This document shows, piece after piece, positions 23,690 to 33,809 of a DNA stretch of 64,000 nucleotides. Numbering within the stretch: the first letter of the stretch is position 1; every line of letters starts with the position of its first letter. This DNA comes from an uncultured delta proteobacterium (GTDB lineage: Bacteria > Desulfobacterota > Desulfuromonadia > Geobacterales > DSM-12255), in contig CAWBBV010000016.1 in assembly GCA_963787125.1 (NCBI GenBank), positions 21,679 through 85,678 of the forward strand, given 5' to 3'. The notes below the pieces were generated by a model, which was given only the letters and a program-made list of their open reading frames with translations, made no database searches and had not been told where the DNA came from. Position numbers and translations under genes: made by a program.

Positions 23690-25342
23690 TTACTTCGACA
23701 TCCTTTCCTTTAATCTCCTGACCCACATCTCGACATAATCCATATCCCCTGCCCGCTCGGTCATCCGTAGCAGTTTCGGCAGACGCTTGACCGCTACCCA
23801 TTTCGGAAGCGTGCGTTCGGCCTCCTTGTCCCAACTGCCATAGCGGTCAACCATGGTATCGAGCAATTGTTTGATATGCTGGTCCATTTCGTCAAGCTGG
23901 CAGAAGAGGTCATAGCGAAGCATCAGCCCAGACAGATCGCCTGCCAGCTCGCTGTGGTCGATATCAAGCACCACGAAAGGTGGCCTGACAGGCGAGGTGA
24001 ACACCGCCACTAAGCAAATGCGGCGGCCCTGTGGAGTCCGCGAAACAGACTGTCCCGGCTTGAGGAAAACCAGCGATACTGTCAGGGTCAGGTCAGGCTG
24101 GGACTGCTCGATCAGTTTCAAGGTTTCGATCAATAAGCCAAGATCTCCGATGGCCTCAAAACTTGCTGGTTCGAGCGTCAACACCTCCAGCGGGGACAAC
24201 CCTCCGGTGACGGATTCCTCCCCCAAACTGACTGTTTTAGAGACGATTTTGACTGGCAGTGCCGGATCAACCGGCCGTCCGGTGTCAGAGCGGGATTTGC
24301 GCGGCACCGGTTCCTGATCTCCGGTTTCCTTAACGGTCTGTCTTGCGCGGGGGGGAGAGAGAATTCTGACGACCCTGGCAGGGGAAGTGAACATACCTCG
24401 CTTACCGCCCAGCAGGATCATATCTTGGTTTATGTCCTTTTGACTATCGGCTTCCTCATCGACTTCATGCTCACGGACATGTACGGGACGGGCTGGACGG
24501 AGTAAGTCATCTTCCTCGTTCTTGGCGACGGTTGTTCTCTCCGGCCCTGTGTTTTTCTCGCAGACCGAAGGATGTGTCCAGTTAATTACCGGGGCTGGCA
24601 GGGCACGACCGGATAGTGCGTTAATCTCCAGAACAAGCCAAGTCTGAGCCTTTGCCACACCGCGGAACTCAATCCTGCAATTTTTCAGGGGCGGTGGTTC
24701 CAAGATCAAGGTCCGTTGTCCCGAACTCAAACGCCGGACGCTGTCCCAGGCAGCTCGCCCTTCCGGATGGACCGCCGCCCAGGCGAACTCCTGAACGAAC
24801 TCAGGGCGCATCAAGGCGCGGGGCGTGTTTTGATGGAATTCGATTAGAATTTCGGGATAAAAGTCAGGAACGGGAGTAAGTGCGAGATTCATCAGCCCCA
24901 TCGGCTCAAGCAGGGCCTTGGCCATTACTTTGCTGTGCAGGAAAAGGAATCGAACCAGTTCCATCGCCGGGATCAGGATGGTCCAACCACGGGAGTGATA
25001 ACGCAAGACACTATGGTCACCACCGAAATGCCCCCCCAGATCATAATGATCACGGGTGAAGGCCTTGATGGCCGGGATGACCTCCATTTGCGACAGATCC
25101 GGAATCACTGCCCAGCCGCTCTTCCCTCCCTTGCGAGAGGTCAGCACCTCTCCACTGGATATCACCAGGCCCGGCATCAGAAAAGGCAGTGTCCCATAGG
25201 GTAGCCGCCAAAAAAAAGTACTGCCGTTTTTCTGGCGGAAAAACGTATCAACACAAAGTTTGCCATCAGTTGTTTTTCCGACTCCCTTCAACCACCGCAG
25301 TTCAAGGTCGTCGGTATAATTGGCCAGCGAGGAAATCTTCAT
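23690..25342 (-). CDS. TnsE-position protein of the Tn7-like element (putative alternative target selector)
   Basis: 550 aa, last gene of the tns operon; its start overlaps the tnsD stop (ATGA). Size and position match TnsE of Tn7 (538 aa). Homology not verified here. Confidence 0.55.
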   Translation of the reverse strand: MKISSLANYTDDLELRWLKGVGKTTDGKLCVDTFFRQKNGSTFFWRLPYGTLPFLMPGLVISSGEVLTSRKGGKSGWAVIPDLSQMEVIPAIKAFTRDHYDLGGHFGGDHSVLRYHSRGWTILIPAMELVRFLFLHSKVMAKALLEPMGLMNLALTPVPDFYPEILIEFHQNTPRALMRPEFVQEFAWAAVHPEGRAAWDSVRRLSSGQRTLILEPPPLKNCRIEFRGVAKAQTWLVLEINALSGRALPAPVINWTHPSVCEKNTGPERTTVAKNEEDDLLRPARPVHVREHEVDEEADSQKDINQDMILLGGKRGMFTSPARVVRILSPPRARQTVKETGDQEPVPRKSRSDTGRPVDPALPVKIVSKTVSLGEESVTGGLSPLEVLTLEPASFEAIGDLGLLIETLKLIEQSQPDLTLTVSLVFLKPGQSVSRTPQGRRICLVAVFTSPVRPPFVVLDIDHSELAGDLSGLMLRYDLFCQLDEMDQHIKQLLDTMVDRYGSWDKEAERTLPKWVAVKRLPKLLRMTERAGDMDYVEMWVRRLKERMSK

Positions 25343-27156
25343 GCCGCCCGGTCCTCCGTCGCCAACATAACAGCTTCAACGCCAGGTGCGCATCGGTCCG
25401 GTAGCCCGGCCAAACGCCTCAGCCGCCAGACCTGAACCGGCTTGTCCTCCTGGCGCAGTTCCTCCGCCGCCCAGGTTATACGGCGGCACTGAAACTCTTC
25501 TACACTTTCAGCAAGCTCGGCCAGCGCTGCAGCGCACAGCGGGAGTTTGTAAAGGCGTTTTCCCAGCCAGCCGGGCTGTCCCAAAGCGCGTTCCAAGGCA
25601 AGGCGGGTAATCTGCAGGGGCGGGGTTAGGGCGCGTAGCCTTGCGACTTCTTGCCGCAGGGCTCTCGCCGTCGTCGCATCGATATCGGCCCAGTCAAAGC
25701 GGGATTTGGTGGGAATTGGGAGTATGGCGGTGGGCGGTTGCGCCTCCAACCAGTTGCGGTCATGGCGATAAAGCCATGTGTATACCGCCGGAATCTGGTG
25801 TCGCAGATGTTGCCGGGTCAGGGTTGGGTTGGCAGTGTGTATTTCGCTCCAGGCAGCGCGCATCACATCCCGTTCGATTTGTGGCCGCTTGGCCCGCTCT
25901 GGCCGGGCCTTCCACGGCGTTTCCAGCCCCAAAAGGGCAACATACCGCAATACCGTCTTGGGATCGACAAACAGAGCTTTGGCAGTGCTGCGTAGACTGG
26001 CCCCAATAGCGACAAAGTCGCGTAACCGGTTCTCAAACAACGGGCCAAGATCGAGGAGTTTGGCGCGGCTGCCTGGCTCCGGCGCAGTGCTGAAGACATA
26101 CCCGCAGGAACAATGAAAAACTCCAATCGTCCTACCACCTTCATCATGCAGTCGGTAATCCGTGACGACCGGTAGGCCATGATGATCGGCAAGCGGATTG
26201 CGGCAGGGCCAGGGGCCGGGTCCGAAGGGGTTGAACCTTTCGAACAGCGGCAGCGCGTCCAACAACAACTGCATCAGAACATGGCGCAAGGGGGCAAAAC
26301 TCTTCCGATGTTTGCGGGCCATCGACACCAGCCAGCCGTCCGGCGCAGCGTCCGGCAGGATGTCGATCATCGGGCCAAAGTGTGTCAGATAGGCATCCAA
26401 CAGCGCTCGTTGGTCCACCTGAGCATCCCCTCGGGCAAAACCGCGCGCAAACAGAGCAGCGCGAATGTAATCGCTCCACGCCACCAGCTTACGAGCCGCA
26501 GGCGGGTTGGTAAGCAAGGCGGCGCTAGCGATAGCAATATCGCGCAGATGCTTGAGCGTTTCCGGTTGATCTATCCAGGCGGGCTGCGGCGGATCGGCAG
26601 GGCAATTGTCCTGGTCTGCTGCGCTGAAGCCGTGCTGGCCGGTACATGGGAGAACGATCCGACTGTCAGCCAGAGGCACGCCGTGAGTCAGGCAAACGAG
26701 GACGCCAGGCAGTTGATGGTCGCGCCGCCAATAGAGCTCCCCATGTCGGGTGAGCATCTCGGCGCGACACGTCGGGCAGTAGCGCAAAGCTGAAGGCAGG
26801 CGGACCTTGCTGGCCGCCAACCCAAGTTTGACATGAAGGGCATCGGCACCATCATTCTCGGCTGTTATCGCTGCCAAAGCCCAGTCACGTGCCTCCTGCG
26901 GCTGAAAGGCCGTAACATAGTTCAGGATGGTGTTCTCTAGCGCGAGCCTGTGTGCCGTGAGTTCCCTTGCTGGCGGTAGGTTTGTCGCCAGCCGACCCAG
27001 TTCTGTCTGCAGAAACGCTCCCGCCCGGACATTGCGGCTGCCGAATGCCTCGTCCAGCATCTGTTTCGGACTGTGCCACCCGCTATGGCGGCAAGTACGC
27101 GCCAACAGGCTGTAGACAAGCTCGTCTCGATAGAGTGCCGGTAGGTAAGGCAGCAT
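25339..27156 (-). CDS. tnsD: TnsD/TniQ-family target-selection protein
   Basis: 605 aa. TniQ-type N-terminus MLPYLPALYRDELVYSLLARTCRHSG and Zn-finger-like region LRYCPTCRAEMLTRHGELYWRRDHQLPGVLVCLTHG. Starts 2 nt after the tnsC exon-2 stop. Confidence 0.85.
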   Translation of the reverse strand: MLPYLPALYRDELVYSLLARTCRHSGWHSPKQMLDEAFGSRNVRAGAFLQTELGRLATNLPPARELTAHRLALENTILNYVTAFQPQEARDWALAAITAENDGADALHVKLGLAASKVRLPSALRYCPTCRAEMLTRHGELYWRRDHQLPGVLVCLTHGVPLADSRIVLPCTGQHGFSAADQDNCPADPPQPAWIDQPETLKHLRDIAIASAALLTNPPAARKLVAWSDYIRAALFARGFARGDAQVDQRALLDAYLTHFGPMIDILPDAAPDGWLVSMARKHRKSFAPLRHVLMQLLLDALPLFERFNPFGPGPWPCRNPLADHHGLPVVTDYRLHDEGGRTIGVFHCSCGYVFSTAPEPGSRAKLLDLGPLFENRLRDFVAIGASLRSTAKALFVDPKTVLRYVALLGLETPWKARPERAKRPQIERDVMRAAWSEIHTANPTLTRQHLRHQIPAVYTWLYRHDRNWLEAQPPTAILPIPTKSRFDWADIDATTARALRQEVARLRALTPPLQITRLALERALGQPGWLGKRLYKLPLCAAALAELAESVEEFQCRRITWAAEELRQEDKPVQVWRLRRLAGLPDRCAPGVEAVMLATEDRAA

Positions 27157-27158
27157 GG

Positions 27159-27258
27159 TTACACCGGTCCGAATCTGGGTGGGCGAACCAGCCCGGCAGC
27201 GGCCAAAGACTCCTCGGCGGTCAGTCCGCGTTCACTGCCCTTAATGGCGATTTTGGAC
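27159..27258 (-). CDS. tnsC: tnsC exon 2 (C-terminal 33 codons + stop)
   Basis: Encodes (L)SKIAIKGSERGLTAEESLAAAGLVRPPRFGPV*. It is in frame with exon 1 once the 1,895-nt intron is removed, and the stop is 2 nt before the tnsD ATG. Confidence 0.7.
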
Positions 27259-29153
27259 AATCGGGTAGCCGGGGGTTTTTCTCCCCCAGCCCCCACACCA
27301 CCGGACATGCGGGTCCGCATCCGGCGGTTCGATAGAATTACCGGGCCGTAGCCGGGTAGTGAAGCTTCACCCACAGTTCTTTGACAGATAATAAGCCTTG
27401 ATCCTTCAGACATTTGTTGGTCAAACCGGTATGAGCAGCCAATCTTCGGGACATGGCCCACGGGCCACTTCTATTCAGGCCCGCTCGGATGGCGGTGAAT
27501 TTCTCCGTCCCCAACTTGAGCAGCTCCCGAATTTTGGTACGACACCAGCGCCACTGTTTCCAGTAACAGAGCCGTATCCTGCGCCTTATCCAACCGTCTA
27601 TTTCCGGAATTTCACGGTAATACTCCGATATTCCGAAGTACCCCATCCAGCCACGGAGATATTGAGCCAGTTTATACAACCGGTACTTCATGGAGACCCG
27701 CCAGCTTCTTCCGGTATACTGTTTGACGCGGCGTCTGAATTCCTTGTATGCCTTGTCAGACCAGATGATGCGGGTGCCACTGAAGATAAAACCAAGGAAG
27801 TCGATGCGGGATGTTCTTGCTACCGCACTCTTGGTTTCATTGACGTTAAGCTTGAGTTTGCTGGTCAGGAAGGTTTTCATCCCTTCCATTACCCGGTCGC
27901 CGGCGCGCTGGCTTTTGACGAGGATGACGAAGTCGTCTGCATAGCGGACGAACTTGTGACCGCGTTTCTCAAGTTCTTTGTCCAGTGTGTCGAGCAGGAT
28001 ATTGGCAAGAAGCGGCGAGAGGGGGCCACCCTGGGGAACACCCAGTCTGGTCTTTTCAAGACGCCCGTTTACCTTTACACCTGCCCGTAAGTACGTGCCG
28101 ATCAGGGCTAGTACCCGCTTGTCGTGAACTTTCTTGCTCACAAGGTGCATGAGCAGATCATGGTTGACCGTGTCGAAGAACTTGGCAAGGTCAATATCCA
28201 CGGCAATCCGGTATCCCTGCTGGATGTACTCCCGCACCTTTCGGACAGCATCTTTTGCTGACCGACGGGGACGGAAACCGAAGCTCGATGCGGAGAAGTC
28301 CGGATCGAAGATCGGTGTCAACACTTGGGCAATGGACTGTTGGATCAGCCGGTCAAGTACAGTGGGTATCCCCAGCGGACGGGTTCCACCCGTTGCTTTG
28401 GGAATCTCTACCCGCTTTACCGGCAAAGGTTGGTAACTGCCTGTCATTAGCGATTCGCGAATAGTGTTCCAGTGAGAACGGGTATGGTCGGGGAATTGTT
28501 CGATGGTGATGCCATCGACGCCGGGTGCGCCCTTATTGGCTTTGACCCGTTTCCACGCTTGCTCCATGTTCGCACTGGAGAGTATCCGCTCCAGTAGGTG
28601 CTGCTCAGGGGTTGGCTGATCAATGACGCGCTCCATAGGCATTCCCCCGGACGGGTTCTTTATGTCATGAAAGCTCATTGGTGCTACTCCCCTTTCTTCG
28701 TTCGGCCCTTCGGCGGGGTAAGGCTTCCCGGACTCTGCCGGGCTTGTTTCCAGTTGCCGGATCGCTTGCGGCAACGTCTCGCGCCTACTATGGCTTCTGC
28801 TGACTTCTGTCCGATACCCGGCATGTTGCCATGCAGAGCGCAGCCCCACGTATCTGGAACGGCAATTCGGACAGATCTCCCCGGATAAGAACGTGAACTG
28901 TGGCTACACAACCGCAGCATTTACCATTTCTCCTGAACCCATGGGACTTCGTCATGTTGTGCTGACTTGCCCGGATGATGGCCTTGTATGCTGTTTCTGT
29001 TCGTCGGCTCATAGCTTTGCGCTCCGGCTTCCTCCAGACCCCTCCTCGCGGAGACGCCCTTGCCTTCGGCTAGTACTTGGTTTACGCTGTCTCGCGACAG
29101 TGTTGGATTCACCGTACAGGGGACTTGCACCCCATAAGTTCACGCCCATGACG
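27259..29153 (-). mobile_element. Group II intron (~1,895 nt) inserted in sense orientation in the 3' part of tnsC
   Basis: Contains an RT/maturase ORF. 5' end GTGTACGCCCG (consensus GUGYG, so one mismatch). Downstream of the ORF there is a domain-V-like hairpin with a 2-nt 3'-side bulge (~27296-27330: AACCGCCGGAUGCG-GACC-CGCAU-GU-CCGGUGGU). A domain-VI-like stem with a bulged A follows (~27262-27295: GGGGGCUGGGGG-AGAAAAA-CCCCCGGCUACCC). The boundaries are ambiguous within a shared ATTG at both junctions. Confidence 0.8.
27338..28678 (-). CDS. Group II intron reverse transcriptase/maturase
   Basis: RT motifs KANKGAPGVDG, TGGTRPLGIPTVLDRLIQQ, VDIDLAKFFDTVNHDLL, GVPQGGPLSPLLANILL, FVRYADDFVIL, plus the maturase X domain (YLRGWMGYF). 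No obvious C-terminal HNH endonuclease. Start chosen at MSFHD (AAGGGGAG upstream); the track ORF extends to 28849 through intron RNA. Confidence 0.93.
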   Translation of the reverse strand: MSFHDIKNPSGGMPMERVIDQPTPEQHLLERILSSANMEQAWKRVKANKGAPGVDGITIEQFPDHTRSHWNTIRESLMTGSYQPLPVKRVEIPKATGGTRPLGIPTVLDRLIQQSIAQVLTPIFDPDFSASSFGFRPRRSAKDAVRKVREYIQQGYRIAVDIDLAKFFDTVNHDLLMHLVSKKVHDKRVLALIGTYLRAGVKVNGRLEKTRLGVPQGGPLSPLLANILLDTLDKELEKRGHKFVRYADDFVILVKSQRAGDRVMEGMKTFLTSKLKLNVNETKSAVARTSRIDFLGFIFSGTRIIWSDKAYKEFRRRVKQYTGRSWRVSMKYRLYKLAQYLRGWMGYFGISEYYREIPEIDGWIRRRIRLCYWKQWRWCRTKIRELLKLGTEKFTAIRAGLNRSGPWAMSRRLAAHTGLTNKCLKDQGLLSVKELWVKLHYPATAR

Positions 29154-30685
29154 GGCGTACACAATGACACTGGCGACTGACGCGCCTTGTCCTGTCGCGG
29201 GGCTCGCTTCGGTTTCTTCTTGGCAGTCTCCGGCCCACGATCCCGTAACATGCCGGAAATATGACCGATTAATTCAAAGTTCGAGGCGTTGGGGTACAGC
29301 GCACGCGCTTTTTCCGCCATCAGAGAAGCGATGTCTTGGGCCAAGCCAACCTGGACCAGCGCGGCGATGAGTTGGTCGGCCCAATTATCTTCGGCGGGTG
29401 GATCATACTGGTCGGGGGGTGAGTCTTGCCGCAACATAGGCTCAGATTGCAGCATTGCATTCTGGAAAATCTGACAGACATGGTTTTCCAGCGGCTTCAG
29501 ATCATCATATTTATCGATTTCCTTCTCATTTTTGGTCTTGAGCGCGGTCATCATCGGCTCGATTACCTTGAAATGCTGGGAGGCCGTCTCGCGGAACAAC
29601 TGGGCGTCCATCACTTCGGGGGTGTTGCGGATGGAGCTCTGTTCCATTACCTGAAGCTGGGTCAGCATGAACAACTTGATAAGCACGTCGATGATACCTT
29701 GGCTTTCATCATAGAGCACGTTGCGGATATCATCAGTCAGCGGAGTTTCCTGAAGGGTCCACTGGAACTTCCACAGGACGTCGACAAAATGGTTCCATAC
29801 TGGTCCAGGCTGTAACCGCTCCCAGACGGCACACCCAAGACCATTGGCACGACGCGCCTGTCGGAAATCGCCTTGAAACAACGGCAGCGCTCCCATGGTC
29901 CCAACAGTGATGACCGGAATACCTATGGTGTTGACCAGAGTGACCAGGAAATTCAACATAGCATCTTGTCCCACCCCATCGGCCAAGGTCAGATGCTGGA
30001 TCTCGTCAATGACCAGAACCCCCAAGGCGTGGCGATTCGCCAACTGCGCCATTTCTGCCATCATCAAATCGATGGAATTTTTGTTTTTTCCAAACTGGGC
30101 GAAGCTCCGTGTCCCCAATATCAGGTCCAGTTCGCGGAAAAAATGTCTGCAGAGCTGATTTGCAGAACCCTTGTAAGGGCAGTCGAGCTTTAGCCAAACT
30201 ACTTGCTGGAGGCTAAAGGGTTGGAGATGTTCGATAGTCTGCGGATAATATTCCAGAAGCCTGTTGATTGCCGTACTTTTGCCCGCCCCCGAGGTGCCCA
30301 ACAGAGTAAATCCCTCGGCCGTTCCCCTTACATAATGGCGGCCCGCGTTCAAATCACGGTTGATGATCCGTTCATGCCCGTCCTGCAGCCGCCGAATATA
30401 GTCGGTGGTCAGAGGATTGCGGCTGACATAGCCTTGCCGTAAGAGTGTCGAGAAGGCGGTTTCCAACCGCAGGTGATGATCAAGTGGTTCGAAGAAACGG
30501 CGCAAACGATACAAGCAATTAATCCGGATATGGAAAGGATAGTTTCGTTCTTCCGGTTTAAAATATGGAGGATCGGACAGGAATTTCAAGGCGTCGCGCT
30601 GGGAAAGCTGCGGAGGCAGTTGATTAATGAAGGGGTTGCTACTAAACTCGGGGAGGAGGGCGATATCGGTCTGAGGCTGGTCCAT
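29154..30685 (-). CDS. tnsC: tnsC exon 1 (AAA+ ATPase regulator of Tn7-type transposition)
   Basis: Walker A LLGTSGAGKSTAINRLL and Walker B-like LGVLVIDEIQHL. The track ORF (29009..30685) continues 48 codons into the intron (…CTPVMGVNLWGASPLYGESN…). Spliced product ~543 aa (Tn7 TnsC is 555 aa). Confidence 0.88.
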
Positions 30686-30691
30686 GATGGC

Positions 30692-32839
30692 TTACTCCTC
30701 CTCTTGATCATCTTTGCGAAATTTTCGTAACATCTCGGTGATGTCTGGCAGGCTGTAGTCTTTCTTTGCCGGTATGCCGGGAAAGGGAACGACATCTGCG
30801 GGTCGCGCCGTTTGTTTACGCTCAGGTCGCAGTGCATCACGCTTCTGCAAAGCTGTCCGCTCCACCTGACGATTGGGGCGGATTTCCTTGGTGCGTTGCC
30901 GGCTCGACGCAGGTGATCTGTTGGCCAGCGCGGATTGGGCCTCGGTCACAATCTGCTGAATCTGCTCTATCAGGTTGATGCGACCCGTAGTTTCCTCGGG
31001 TTGCTGCATGCGGGCAACACTCTTGGCCTCCTGTCGTAACTGATCAATTTCCCACAAAGTTTTGCCGACATGTTCGCGGCTCTGCCCCATCAGTGTACAG
31101 GGAATGAAATGCGGCTGACCGCTTTCGCCTTGTAGCCATATGTCGTCCATGCATCGTGGATCATAAGAAACGACGATCCGCCAGTTTCTGACCTGCCGGG
31201 CGCGCTCGAACCAGTGTTCCTTGATGGCCAGCGTGCAGGAATAGTAGAGCCCGAAAAGACGGATGCCCCGCTCTGTTACGGTCGCGTTGTCATGCGGCAG
31301 CAGACTGAGACGGACCAGATCAGCTGGATATTGCCGCAACCGTCCGCTTCGGTTAGCGATGCCCCAATTCCATAACTCAACTGGGACGGCGGGAACTCGA
31401 TCGCGAATCATCTCGGGACTGAGCGGGTACTCCTTCAACCGGTGCTGGATGTTATAGTATCGGACACAGACAAGTAGAATTTTTGTGAATTGATCGATAT
31501 TCAGTGTCGCGTCAAGGCGATAGTCATTGCCACCGCGCTGCTGATAATCTTCCTGAATATAGCCGGGGGTATATGCCTTGAATCGCGCTGGGAGCAGGCG
31601 GAATTGTTGTTCCACCACCCCTTTCCAATCGGCGCGATAGGGAGCGGAGTTTTCTATCCTGACGGCAAAGGCCTTAATCAGCGTTTCTACCATCTGCCCG
31701 ACCATTTCCCCCCGGTCGCCCATAATAGCTTCCGGCATGCCCTGGCAGGGCCATTGGTCGCTACTGAAGCTGACGCCAAACCGGTCGCAATAAGGCCCCT
31801 TGTCCAATATGGCATTGCTCAGCGCCTGCATGGCTCCCACCCAGCTTGGTCCCTCGAACCCGACATGCAGGCCGGTAATCATTCTGCTGAAAACGTCTAT
31901 GATGACGTAGACAACTGGACGGCCAACGATCTTGTCCGAGAAATAACGGGAGACGAGATAAACATCGGCAATGGTTGCGTCGATCAGGTAGCGGGAGCCG
32001 GGACCGATGGTCTCCGCCGTGGCTGTGCCGGTCAATGCCCGCATGTCCTTGTCATAGACACGCGGTGAGACCCGCCGCCGCTTCAATTCGAAGATGTCGT
32101 TGTCCTTTTGATACCAGTAACGGAACTGCCACCAACTGGGCGCATCTGGACGTAAAATCAGTTCCTGCTGGCTGGTTTCCGTATTGATCACCGAGTCGGA
32201 AAAGAAAGATCCCAGCATGGCATGATAACACTCGGTCAGTTCAAAGACCGAATGCATGGCATAATATTTGGTGATGGCCACCTTGAAGATTAGGCGTGTT
32301 TCTACGGTAACATTGGCCGAGGGCTCGTTGTTTTTCGGCGGTCGCCCCCGTGGCTTTCCTGTGGCGGGACGCTCCTTCCCCCTCCCACCGCAATAGTCAT
32401 AGTCTGGCAGCAGGGCATTGGGAGTCATGCCACGCTGCCAGTAGCGACGTAGCAACCGCAACAGGCTGTGGCAGCTTTCGCCATGAGCCGTGACGGTTTC
32501 GGCGATAATCTGCCCCCGCTTGCGGAGGTCGAAAATCTCTGGTTGCCGGGCGAGCAGCGGTGCGATTCGAGCATAGTTCTCATCACGAATGACGCGTTGG
32601 GCGGGTGAGAGCTGATCCTCGATCACCATGATCAGGAAGGGATCATCTGCTCGCAGATGAATCGCCTCCTCGCTCTGCAACCGGATCACATCTTCATGCC
32701 GTCGATAGGCCGGATTGGCCCGTTCCGCCAGGATATCGATGACAACATATCCTGGGTCCAGGGTATCGAACCATAGCACCCGTTCGGTGTGACCGTCTTC
32801 GGTAAATTCCAACAGCTGGTTCAGGGTCAGGAGGGTCAT
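30692..32839 (-). CDS. tnsB: TnsB, Mu/retroviral-integrase-type DDE transposase
   Basis: 715 aa. rve-type core (YLIDATIADVYLV..., VIIDVFSRMITGLHVGF..., MGDRGEM...). The position between tnsA and tnsC is typical. Confidence 0.9.
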   Translation of the reverse strand: MTLLTLNQLLEFTEDGHTERVLWFDTLDPGYVVIDILAERANPAYRRHEDVIRLQSEEAIHLRADDPFLIMVIEDQLSPAQRVIRDENYARIAPLLARQPEIFDLRKRGQIIAETVTAHGESCHSLLRLLRRYWQRGMTPNALLPDYDYCGGRGKERPATGKPRGRPPKNNEPSANVTVETRLIFKVAITKYYAMHSVFELTECYHAMLGSFFSDSVINTETSQQELILRPDAPSWWQFRYWYQKDNDIFELKRRRVSPRVYDKDMRALTGTATAETIGPGSRYLIDATIADVYLVSRYFSDKIVGRPVVYVIIDVFSRMITGLHVGFEGPSWVGAMQALSNAILDKGPYCDRFGVSFSSDQWPCQGMPEAIMGDRGEMVGQMVETLIKAFAVRIENSAPYRADWKGVVEQQFRLLPARFKAYTPGYIQEDYQQRGGNDYRLDATLNIDQFTKILLVCVRYYNIQHRLKEYPLSPEMIRDRVPAVPVELWNWGIANRSGRLRQYPADLVRLSLLPHDNATVTERGIRLFGLYYSCTLAIKEHWFERARQVRNWRIVVSYDPRCMDDIWLQGESGQPHFIPCTLMGQSREHVGKTLWEIDQLRQEAKSVARMQQPEETTGRINLIEQIQQIVTEAQSALANRSPASSRQRTKEIRPNRQVERTALQKRDALRPERKQTARPADVVPFPGIPAKKDYSLPDITEMLRKFRKDDQEEE

Positions 32840-33675
32840 GCTCGCTTCTCCATATAGCTGGAAAGTGGCATCTGAAACGATGCCATGGTCAGTCGGTCGC
32901 TCAGCGTCAGGGTCTCCATGTCGCAGATGATCGACTTAGTGGCCAGGAGATGGCGGAACAGCATCAGCCCATCACCATCGATTAGCTCTAGGCGGGCCTC
33001 CATGTCGGAGCAGAACTGGCGTAAAGTCTGCCACGGTGAGGCCATAACCTGTGCCAGCATCCTTCGGGCTGCGTCCTGGTAAAATCCGGGATGTGGTTCG
33101 ATAAGATCATTCAATCGATAGAAACTGTGAACCCATTCGATATTGCGAATCAGGCAGGTGGGAAGAACTGCCGGGGTGACGATGCTCCAGTCAACCGCCT
33201 TGGTGCCCCAGTAAATCCTTTCTATTTCAAGCTTTTCTCTTGTCCGGGGAACGTCGAGATCCTTGCCAAGCTTGACCGCATAGGCCACTTGGGCCAGGCA
33301 TCCGTCTTTCCAGACATCGACCAGAAAGTCAGTGGTCATGACCATCGGCGTGGACATGCCGGGAAAGCGGGGAGGTTGGATATTACAGGTCTGAGCGATG
33401 AGGGTTGTTGCGGACCGGTCGAGGGGGAATTGTTCCCGGATATCGGCGACTGACTCTTCCCATTCCAGCCAGTAGAACAAGCTACGTTCAATATCAGAAA
33501 GAAGATGGTGTATTCGGCCAGTATGAATGCCCATAGGGCGCGTGCTGCGCCCTATCGAGGGGACATCTTGAACGGTTAGCCAGGGCTTGTAGTCATTCTT
33601 GTTTCCCTTTCCCCGTCCTTCCTTTTCGAACAGGGCAATCCGTTGTTCGTCAATGACATATCGGCGTCGTGCCAT
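32836..33675 (-). CDS. tnsA: TnsA, restriction-endonuclease-like transposase subunit
   Basis: 279 aa. HLLSDIERSLFYWLEWEESVADIREQFPL and MTTDFLVDV match the TnsA N-terminal catalytic-domain pattern. First gene inside the right end; its stop overlaps the tnsB start. Confidence 0.88.
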   Translation of the reverse strand: MARRRYVIDEQRIALFEKEGRGKGNKNDYKPWLTVQDVPSIGRSTRPMGIHTGRIHHLLSDIERSLFYWLEWEESVADIREQFPLDRSATTLIAQTCNIQPPRFPGMSTPMVMTTDFLVDVWKDGCLAQVAYAVKLGKDLDVPRTREKLEIERIYWGTKAVDWSIVTPAVLPTCLIRNIEWVHSFYRLNDLIEPHPGFYQDAARRMLAQVMASPWQTLRQFCSDMEARLELIDGDGLMLFRHLLATKSIICDMETLTLSDRLTMASFQMPLSSYMEKRA

Positions 33676-33744: not shown

Positions 33745-33809
33745 GACCAAACTTTATTCATCACGAGCAAACTATTTTACCCATGAGCAAACTTTATTAC
33801 ATCTGGACA
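33745..33809. repeat. Tn7-like right end: three abutting ~20-bp TnsB-type binding repeats ending in terminal ...ACA (5'-TGT on the element strand)
   Basis: GACCAAACTTTATTCATCAC / GAGCAAACTATTTTACCCAT / GAGCAAACTTTATTACATCTGGACA. The terminal ACA is at 33807-33809. There are 24 nt (33810-33833) to the glmS stop codon. Confidence 0.75.

Follow-up and report, generated by a model that had tools for sequence, protein, structure and literature searches.

A sense-oriented group II intron in the tnsC gene of a Tn7-like element from an uncultured delta proteobacterium

The stretch of DNA analyzed here (the window) comprises 64,000 nucleotides (nt) of contig CAWBBV010000016.1 (positions 21,679 to 85,678, forward strand) in assembly GCA_963787125.1, from an uncultured delta proteobacterium of the order Geobacterales. 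It carries the transposition genes of a Tn7-like element in the order tnsA-B-C-D, adjoining glmS, and its tnsC gene is interrupted by a group II intron (Table 1). The intron is complete and real and lies in the same orientation as tnsC, as had been proposed by a reading of the nucleotides and open reading frames (ORFs) made without database searches (the sequence-only reading); Rfam models and an ORF for a reverse transcriptase (RT) and maturase fall on the tnsC strand. The same reading held that precise removal of the intron restores an in-frame C-terminus and a compact tnsC-tnsD junction. Both claims stand: the restored tail is conserved in intron-less homologues, and the stop codon (TAA, 27161-27159) is followed after 2 nt by the tnsD start codon (ATG, 27156), an arrangement that suggests translational coupling.

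Table 1. Coordinates of the intron, the tnsC exons and neighboring features in the window (aa, amino acids; EBS and IBS, exon- and intron-binding sites; IEP, intron-encoded protein)
Feature	Position	Strand	Description
Group II intron, assigned to class C	27260..29160	-	1901 nt, 5'-GUACG...CCCGAU-3'; sense to tnsC
Domains V and VI	27260..27329	-	RF00029, 49 bits, full model 1-77, end at 27260
IEP	27338..28678	-	446 aa; RT and maturase (X); Pfam RVT_1 1.5e-41, GIIM 1.3e-14
EBS1 (ACAA)	28957..28960	-	Loop of hairpin GUCA-GCACAACA-UGAC (28966-28951), within the RF02001 alignment
IBS1 (TTGT)	29161..29164	-	Last 4 nt of exon 1, from Leu-Leu codons TTG T/TG
Weak imperfect 5'-exon stem-loop	29161..29195	-	GGCG..CGCC core, ends at the splice site
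tnsC exon 1	29161..30685	-	508 codons and 1 nt; AAA+ TniB/TnsC core, then basic linker ...KKKPKRAPRQDKARQSPVSL
tnsC exon 2	27159..27259	-	2 nt, 32 codons and TAA; encodes (L)SKIAIKGSERGLTAEESLAAAGLVRPPRFGPV
tnsA	32836-33675	-	Intact; Pfam TnsA N- and C-terminal domains
tnsB	30692-32839	-	Intact; Pfam Mu-transpos_C
tnsD	25339-27156	-	605 aa, intact; Pfam TnsD 6.8e-73, TniQ 2e-20
Tn7-like element right end	33745..33809	.	Three ~20-bp TnsB-site-like repeats and terminal TGT
glmU, glmS	in window	-	Upstream neighbors of the Tn7-like element, read on the minus strand

Three Rfam models match the intron, all above their gathering scores and on the same strand as tnsC: RF02001 at 29055-28890 (127 bits, D1-D4), RF01998 at 28839-28783 (43 bits), and RF00029 at the 3' end. 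Domain VI has a bulged branch-site A at 27266, and the final intron base is U 27260. EBS1 is complementary to the exon-1 end UUGU, and IBS3 is T 27259, the first base of exon 2. The IEP contains no HNH/En endonuclease (En) domain by Pfam, and its relatives in the PDB are all group II RTs. The nearest are the GsI-IIC RT (6ar1, 1e-140) and the RTs of class C (IIC) introns from E. rectale (1e-107) and R. intestinalis (Roseburia), with far weaker matches to LtrA (class IIA, 5e-42) and to a 562-aa maturase RT (6me0, 1e-35). Based on this ranking of RT scores, the lack of an En domain, and the 4-nt IBS1, the intron is assigned to class C. The covariance-model check proposed in the sequence-only reading bore the intron out with all three Rfam models. 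A search for an outward-directed promoter resembling Pout of the IIC-attC introns gave nothing convincing.

Exon 1 matches Pfam families AAA_22 and TniB, a homologue of the tnsC product matches TnsC of E. coli Tn7 at 7.6e-93, and a homologue profile aligns with Tn7 TnsC residues 16-516 at 7.7e-133. The interrupted gene, which lies between tnsB and tnsD/tniQ, is accordingly identified as coding for a Tn7-like TnsC, an AAA+ ATPase of the TniB type. A search with exon 1 returned more than 2000 homologues, the closest at up to 77% identity (P0003 and P0004, 76-77%). Close intron-less TnsC homologues are 536-545 aa long and carry C-terminal ...PVSLLSDIAEKGREAGQSAEESLTAAGLVRPPRFG.., the same peptide as that encoded by exon 2, so that the alignment suggested in the sequence-only reading yields a counterpart for this peptide; the L, G, and P of the tail are nearly invariant. 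The annotated tnsC ORF (30685-29009; P0002) is 558 aa long and consists of genuine TnsC followed by unrelated residues. Its last 50 residues are translated intron domain I (window 29009-29160, minus strand), and the 558-aa sequence is present in the protein database from the source genome only. It is a read-through artefact of annotation; the gene would in truth yield a protein of 541 aa.

An earlier metagenome scan with exon 1 as query gave no matches. A search with the homologue alignment gave 80 metagenomic tnsC loci, all at no more than 61% identity and thus too distant to show a base-level empty site; an RT is present in none of them (0/80), and the spliced protein is collinear past residue 530 in 52. 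In TnsC of Tn7, residues 504-555 bind TnsA and come after a basic segment at 495-509 (bioRxiv 10.1101/2021.05.24.445525). The conserved tail here directly follows a basic segment (KKKPKRAPRQDKAR), and its position and conservation suggest that it may likewise bind TnsA.

From sequence comparison, the intron is predicted to run from 29160 to 27260, cut as ...TCATTGT/GTACG...CCCGAT/TGTCC. The sequence-only reading had instead placed the junctions at ...TCATT/GTGTACG...CCCGATT/GTCC, giving an intron of 1904 nt (29162..27259) that starts with GUGUA and ends with GAUU, and a TnsC of 540 aa (...PVSLSKIA...). All copies of the intron in this genome (see below) do share GT-GTACG at the 5' end and CCCGAT-T at the 3' end, and their longest common block is 1904 nt. 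The 1904-nt block looks like the intron because every copy is flanked by the same bases: the GT ahead of GTACG belongs to IBS1 and the T behind CCCGAT is IBS3, both being conserved parts of the target. Both models restore the same reading frame, the 1901-nt model adding one Leu, and the empty dfrA16 attC found in plasmids (gcgcttgttaac) fits both and does not discriminate between them.

The spliced proteins differ. Removal of 1901 nt gives the ligated junction TCATTGTTGTCC (...GTGTCATTGT/TGTCCAAAATC) and a 541-aa protein (...PVSLLSKIAIKG...), and this is the only cut that aligns without gaps to 22 homologues; removal of 1904 nt gives TCATTGTCC and a 540-aa protein that lacks one residue right at the junction, a gap seen in 0 of the 22. 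The longer intron would also begin with a non-canonical GUGUA and end in UU, whereas Rfam has domain VI stop at AU (27261-27260), and the EBS1 loop ACAA would be unmatched to its 5' exon ends (CAUU, GCUU, and others). A 74%-identical relative has ACGU in the loop and ..CGU at the exon end; the 1904-nt junctions leave this compensatory change, at position -3, unexplained. An E. coli plasmid intron, located in a class 1 integron where it adjoins qacEdelta1 in antisense orientation (IEP 55% identical), combines EBS1 ACAA with TTGT and has the ends cttgt/GTACG...CCCGAT/t. The published target consensus of IIC-attC introns, TTGT/T (IBS1/IBS3), conflicts with the 1904-nt junctions as well (PMC7923331). 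Homologue alignment, domain VI end, EBS1 covariation, plasmid intron ends, and published target all argue for an intron at 29160..27260, and the 1904-nt junctions are very improbable. The deviation of 5' GUGUA from GUGYG pointed out earlier is then an artefact of a splice site set 2 nt too far upstream, as the start is GUACG. The ATTG shared by both junctions has no significance of its own, since the target TTGT/T lies beside the first G of the intron, and the exon-1 TTG codon given as 29155-53 is at 29164-29162. A third candidate of 1903 nt (GTGTACG start, GAT/T), whose splicing would frameshift tnsC, was dropped once the 5' boundary was moved to GTACG.

The genome contains eight full-length copies of the intron that are 95-99.8% identical, and the 446-aa IEP ORF is intact in 8/8. 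Besides the copy in tnsC, three are located at C4:126150-143728, two at C5:29492-36827, and one each at C3:1-1895 and C18:77288-79187 (C numbers are contigs of the assembly, C16 being the one that holds the window). The copies fall into three subfamilies, with differences of 2-3, 22-27, and 53-112 bases, and the family looks active. Hairpins precede all seven of the other full copies and all three partial copies. Six of the seven follow GC-rich imperfect attC-like hairpins (-27 to -33 kcal/mol for five, -16.7 kcal/mol for copy C5a), and the C18 copy lies behind a canonical terminator. At the six hairpin-sited copies, assigning GT and T to the target turns the junctions into RYYYAAC-like boxes; the other strand has GTTRRRY-like boxes (such as GTTGAAC and GTTGGAC) at a distance of ~50 nt. 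Integron integrase (intI) genes are present at C4:161732-162667 and C23:106715-107650, scoring 341 and 338 bits, respectively, above the NCBIfam TIGR02249 cut-off; the three C4 introns are 18-35 kb from intI, on the strand opposite to that expected for cassettes.

IIC-attC introns normally insert antisense in the R'' box of attC sites, into the bottom strand, or after terminators (PMC3001079; PMC7923331; reviewed in PMC4424553). Antisense insertion at TTGT/T in the attC R'' box is found for the sister copies, and the tnsC copy shares the TTGT/T core only. The intron appears to behave as a member of the IIC-attC lineage, a placement based on behavior, termini, and target.

Several related sequences were seen in the same genome. 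A divergent intron (74%) lies at C23:103137-105076, 1.6 kb from intI, and apparently shares its strand with the expected cassettes, unlike the usual antisense habit. An intron remnant at C14:40124-40676 has the first ~527 nt joined to the terminal CCCGAT across CTA microhomology, an internal deletion having removed the ORF and domains V-VI. C16 also holds two pieces of the intron's 5' end, ~120-130 nt long and 98-99% identical, at C16:255654-255775 and C16:256809-256937 (~233976-235259 in window numbering); each follows an attC-like hairpin and ends abruptly, and they may stem from insertions that were aborted or from deletions inside another cassette array.

The tnsC copy differs from the C3 copy by three substitutions, and the insertion is therefore recent and took place in this lineage. 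The last 60 nt of exon 1 fold with -15.2 kcal/mol in RNAfold, and the weakest of the five strong attC-like hairpins reaches -26.8 kcal/mol. The genome has 9364 TTGTT sites; in a random sample (n=1500), 23% are as stable as the tnsC site and 0.7% reach -26 kcal/mol. The tnsC copy is most readily explained by ectopic retrotransposition into a TTGT/T site present by chance, and not by homing. A 1.9-kb repeat present in many copies could in principle have been misplaced in tnsC during contig joining, as the genome is a 30-contig draft and the C3 and C18 copies sit at contig ends, where the repeat breaks the assembly. Such an artefact is extremely improbable, as both junctions meet at one point of tnsC and rebuild a perfect TTGT/T together with the frame of the homologues, and the tnsC copy has three substitutions of its own.

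Transcription of tnsABCD would include the intron, and RT/maturase made in cis or by any of the seven other intact copies would aid its splicing. Splicing at ...UCAUUGU/GUACG...CCCGAU/UGUCC would give the 541-aa TnsC, the last ~33 residues of which form the conserved tail. Unspliced mRNA would give 508 genuine and 50 intron-encoded residues (558 aa, stop at 29009), a protein that would keep the AAA+ ring and the basic linker and be without the extreme C-terminus, the part that binds TnsA in E. coli Tn7; translational coupling into tnsD would be lost as well. Transposition of the element would need splicing because the unspliced product loses the conserved C-terminus and the coupling to tnsD. 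That splicing would gate transposition follows logically from this anatomy, and we infer it with some assurance. In our judgment the intron probably splices at least partly, so that the element would be throttled and not freely active.

Exon ligation is nevertheless expected to be inefficient, because the 5'-exon hairpin used by IIC introns is weak here. The IIC intron B.h.I1 required a 5'-exon stem-loop to ligate its exons in vitro, and B.h.I1(X) and a terminator-deleted construct yielded no ligated exons (PMC1702495). IIC-attC introns are normally antisense to genes and so are unselected for clean splicing (PMC3001079; PMC7923331), the insertion in tnsC, three substitutions old, has left no time for selection, and four sequencing runs with matches to the locus contain no spliced reads. 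These observations are in line with plain insertional inactivation, in which hydrolytic 5' cleavage occurs, the exon is lost, as with B.h.I1 copies lacking a good stem-loop, and no ligated exons form in vivo; tnsC would then be, in effect, a recently formed pseudogene, and the 40-kb element could move only if complemented in trans. We consider inactivation the unlikelier outcome by some distance. The absence of spliced reads is uninformative, since the four runs left the exons uncovered, and IBS1 and IBS3 at the tnsC site match EBS1 perfectly. Ribozyme and maturase are intact and near-identical to those of recently mobile copies, with intact maturase available from eight loci. The maturases of group II introns usually rescue in vivo reactions that fail in vitro, which also speaks against inactivation.

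Several points weigh against splicing as the gate of transposition. The 5'-exon structure at tnsC is ordinary, so ligation of the exons may fail altogether. The four sequencing runs (two RNA, two probably DNA; contigs) covered 27243-29186 only, through relatives in other contexts; the best run, which shared 55% of query words, was likewise intron-only, and the runs showed no tnsC or tnsD flanks, no joined exons, and no empty site. When solved structures were searched with the peptide or the homologue profile, no similarity of the exon-2 tail to Tn7 TnsC 504-555 emerged. The left end of the element, located at C16:15410-15560 outside the window and ~40 kb from the right end, has three AATAAAGTTTACTC repeats and terminates in TGAATAG and not TGT, so the element is perhaps already impaired for other reasons. 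A more far-reaching proposal is still more doubtful than inactivation: that an integron-associated IIC-attC intron, elsewhere an antisense passenger between genes, works here as a true sense-strand intron of a protein-coding gene and splices accurately despite a poor 5'-exon hairpin, that TnsA-TnsC assembly and transposition of a 40-kb toxin-carrying element are thereby conditional on maturase, and that the tnsABCD promoter makes this copy the most strongly transcribed one and the master source of new intron copies.

The closest known systems are the IIC-attC introns (S.ma.I2, G.s.I1, N.e.I1, and class 1 integron copies such as NZ_LT985250), which have the same ~446-aa RT/maturase without En domain and the same termini (GUACG...CCCGAU), EBS1 (ACAA), and target (TTGT/T), in agreement with PMC3001079 and PMC7923331. 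The sister copies here likewise follow bulged attC-like hairpins, some on contigs with integron integrase genes. The tnsC copy differs in being inside a protein-coding gene, in sense, and with no strong hairpin at its site, and for these reasons splicing matters to the host gene; compared with plasmid-borne IIC-attC introns, the IEP is only ~55% identical. Class C introns that follow terminators (B.h.I1, GsI-IIC, O.i.I1) share the short IBS1, include the closest solved RT (6ar1), and resemble the C18 copy in position. They lie downstream of genes and leave ORFs uninterrupted, whereas the tnsC intron interrupts an ORF. The tnsC intron presumably also shares with them the lack of an EBS2 and a CGC-type domain V, and its 5' numbering presumably aligns with that of O.i.I1.

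Two other introns combine splicing with the fate of a mobile element. Ll.LtrB interrupts the relaxase gene ltrB in conjugative elements of lactococci. This IIA intron has an En domain, long EBS/IBS pairings, and a conserved homing site; it is stable across several elements, and conjugation requires its splicing. There too a mobile-element function needs splicing, with a stable association in place of the single recent ectopic hit seen here. RmInt1, in the transposase gene of ISRm2011-2 in Sinorhizobium meliloti, is likewise a group II intron nested in a transposition gene of another mobile element, and its splicing efficiency was proposed to limit the spread of that element (PMC4238363). RmInt1 belongs to IIB3/class D and has the insertion sequence as its specific homing target, whereas the present intron is of class C, with an ectopic hit in the regulator gene tnsC, not the transposase, in this one genome only. 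Bacteria commonly carry group II introns inside other mobile elements (PMC4424553), and a literature search, whose listed matches were judged mainly by title and abstract, found no description of one in tnsC. The tnsC intron is a single recent, atypically placed insertion of a well-described element, and the idea that such an intron limits its host element is already published.

The locus offers a natural test of whether a class C, attC-targeting intron can splice from an ORF context with IBS1 and IBS3 and no strong stem-loop, and of whether this branch of Tn7 needs the conserved far C-terminal end of TnsC for transposition. Within one genome, moreover, an active-looking intron family has moved among a terminator, a transposon, and attC-like sites of the chromosome.

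The right end of the Tn7-like element lies 24 nt from the glmS stop codon. The element is foreign to the host lineage, since tnsC in 60 relatives reaches only 39% identity; no close tnsC was found in these 60, and hence no orthologous empty site. A 550-aa ORF in the position of TnsE (window 23690-25342, minus strand) overlaps the tnsD stop codon, has no Pfam hit, and may encode an alternative target selector. At C16:15321-15560, the left end of the element abuts four GTATCCAACTTTATT repeats, which are of a different TnsB-site type and in right-end orientation; this arrangement resembles a further Tn7-like element in tandem, or what is left of one.

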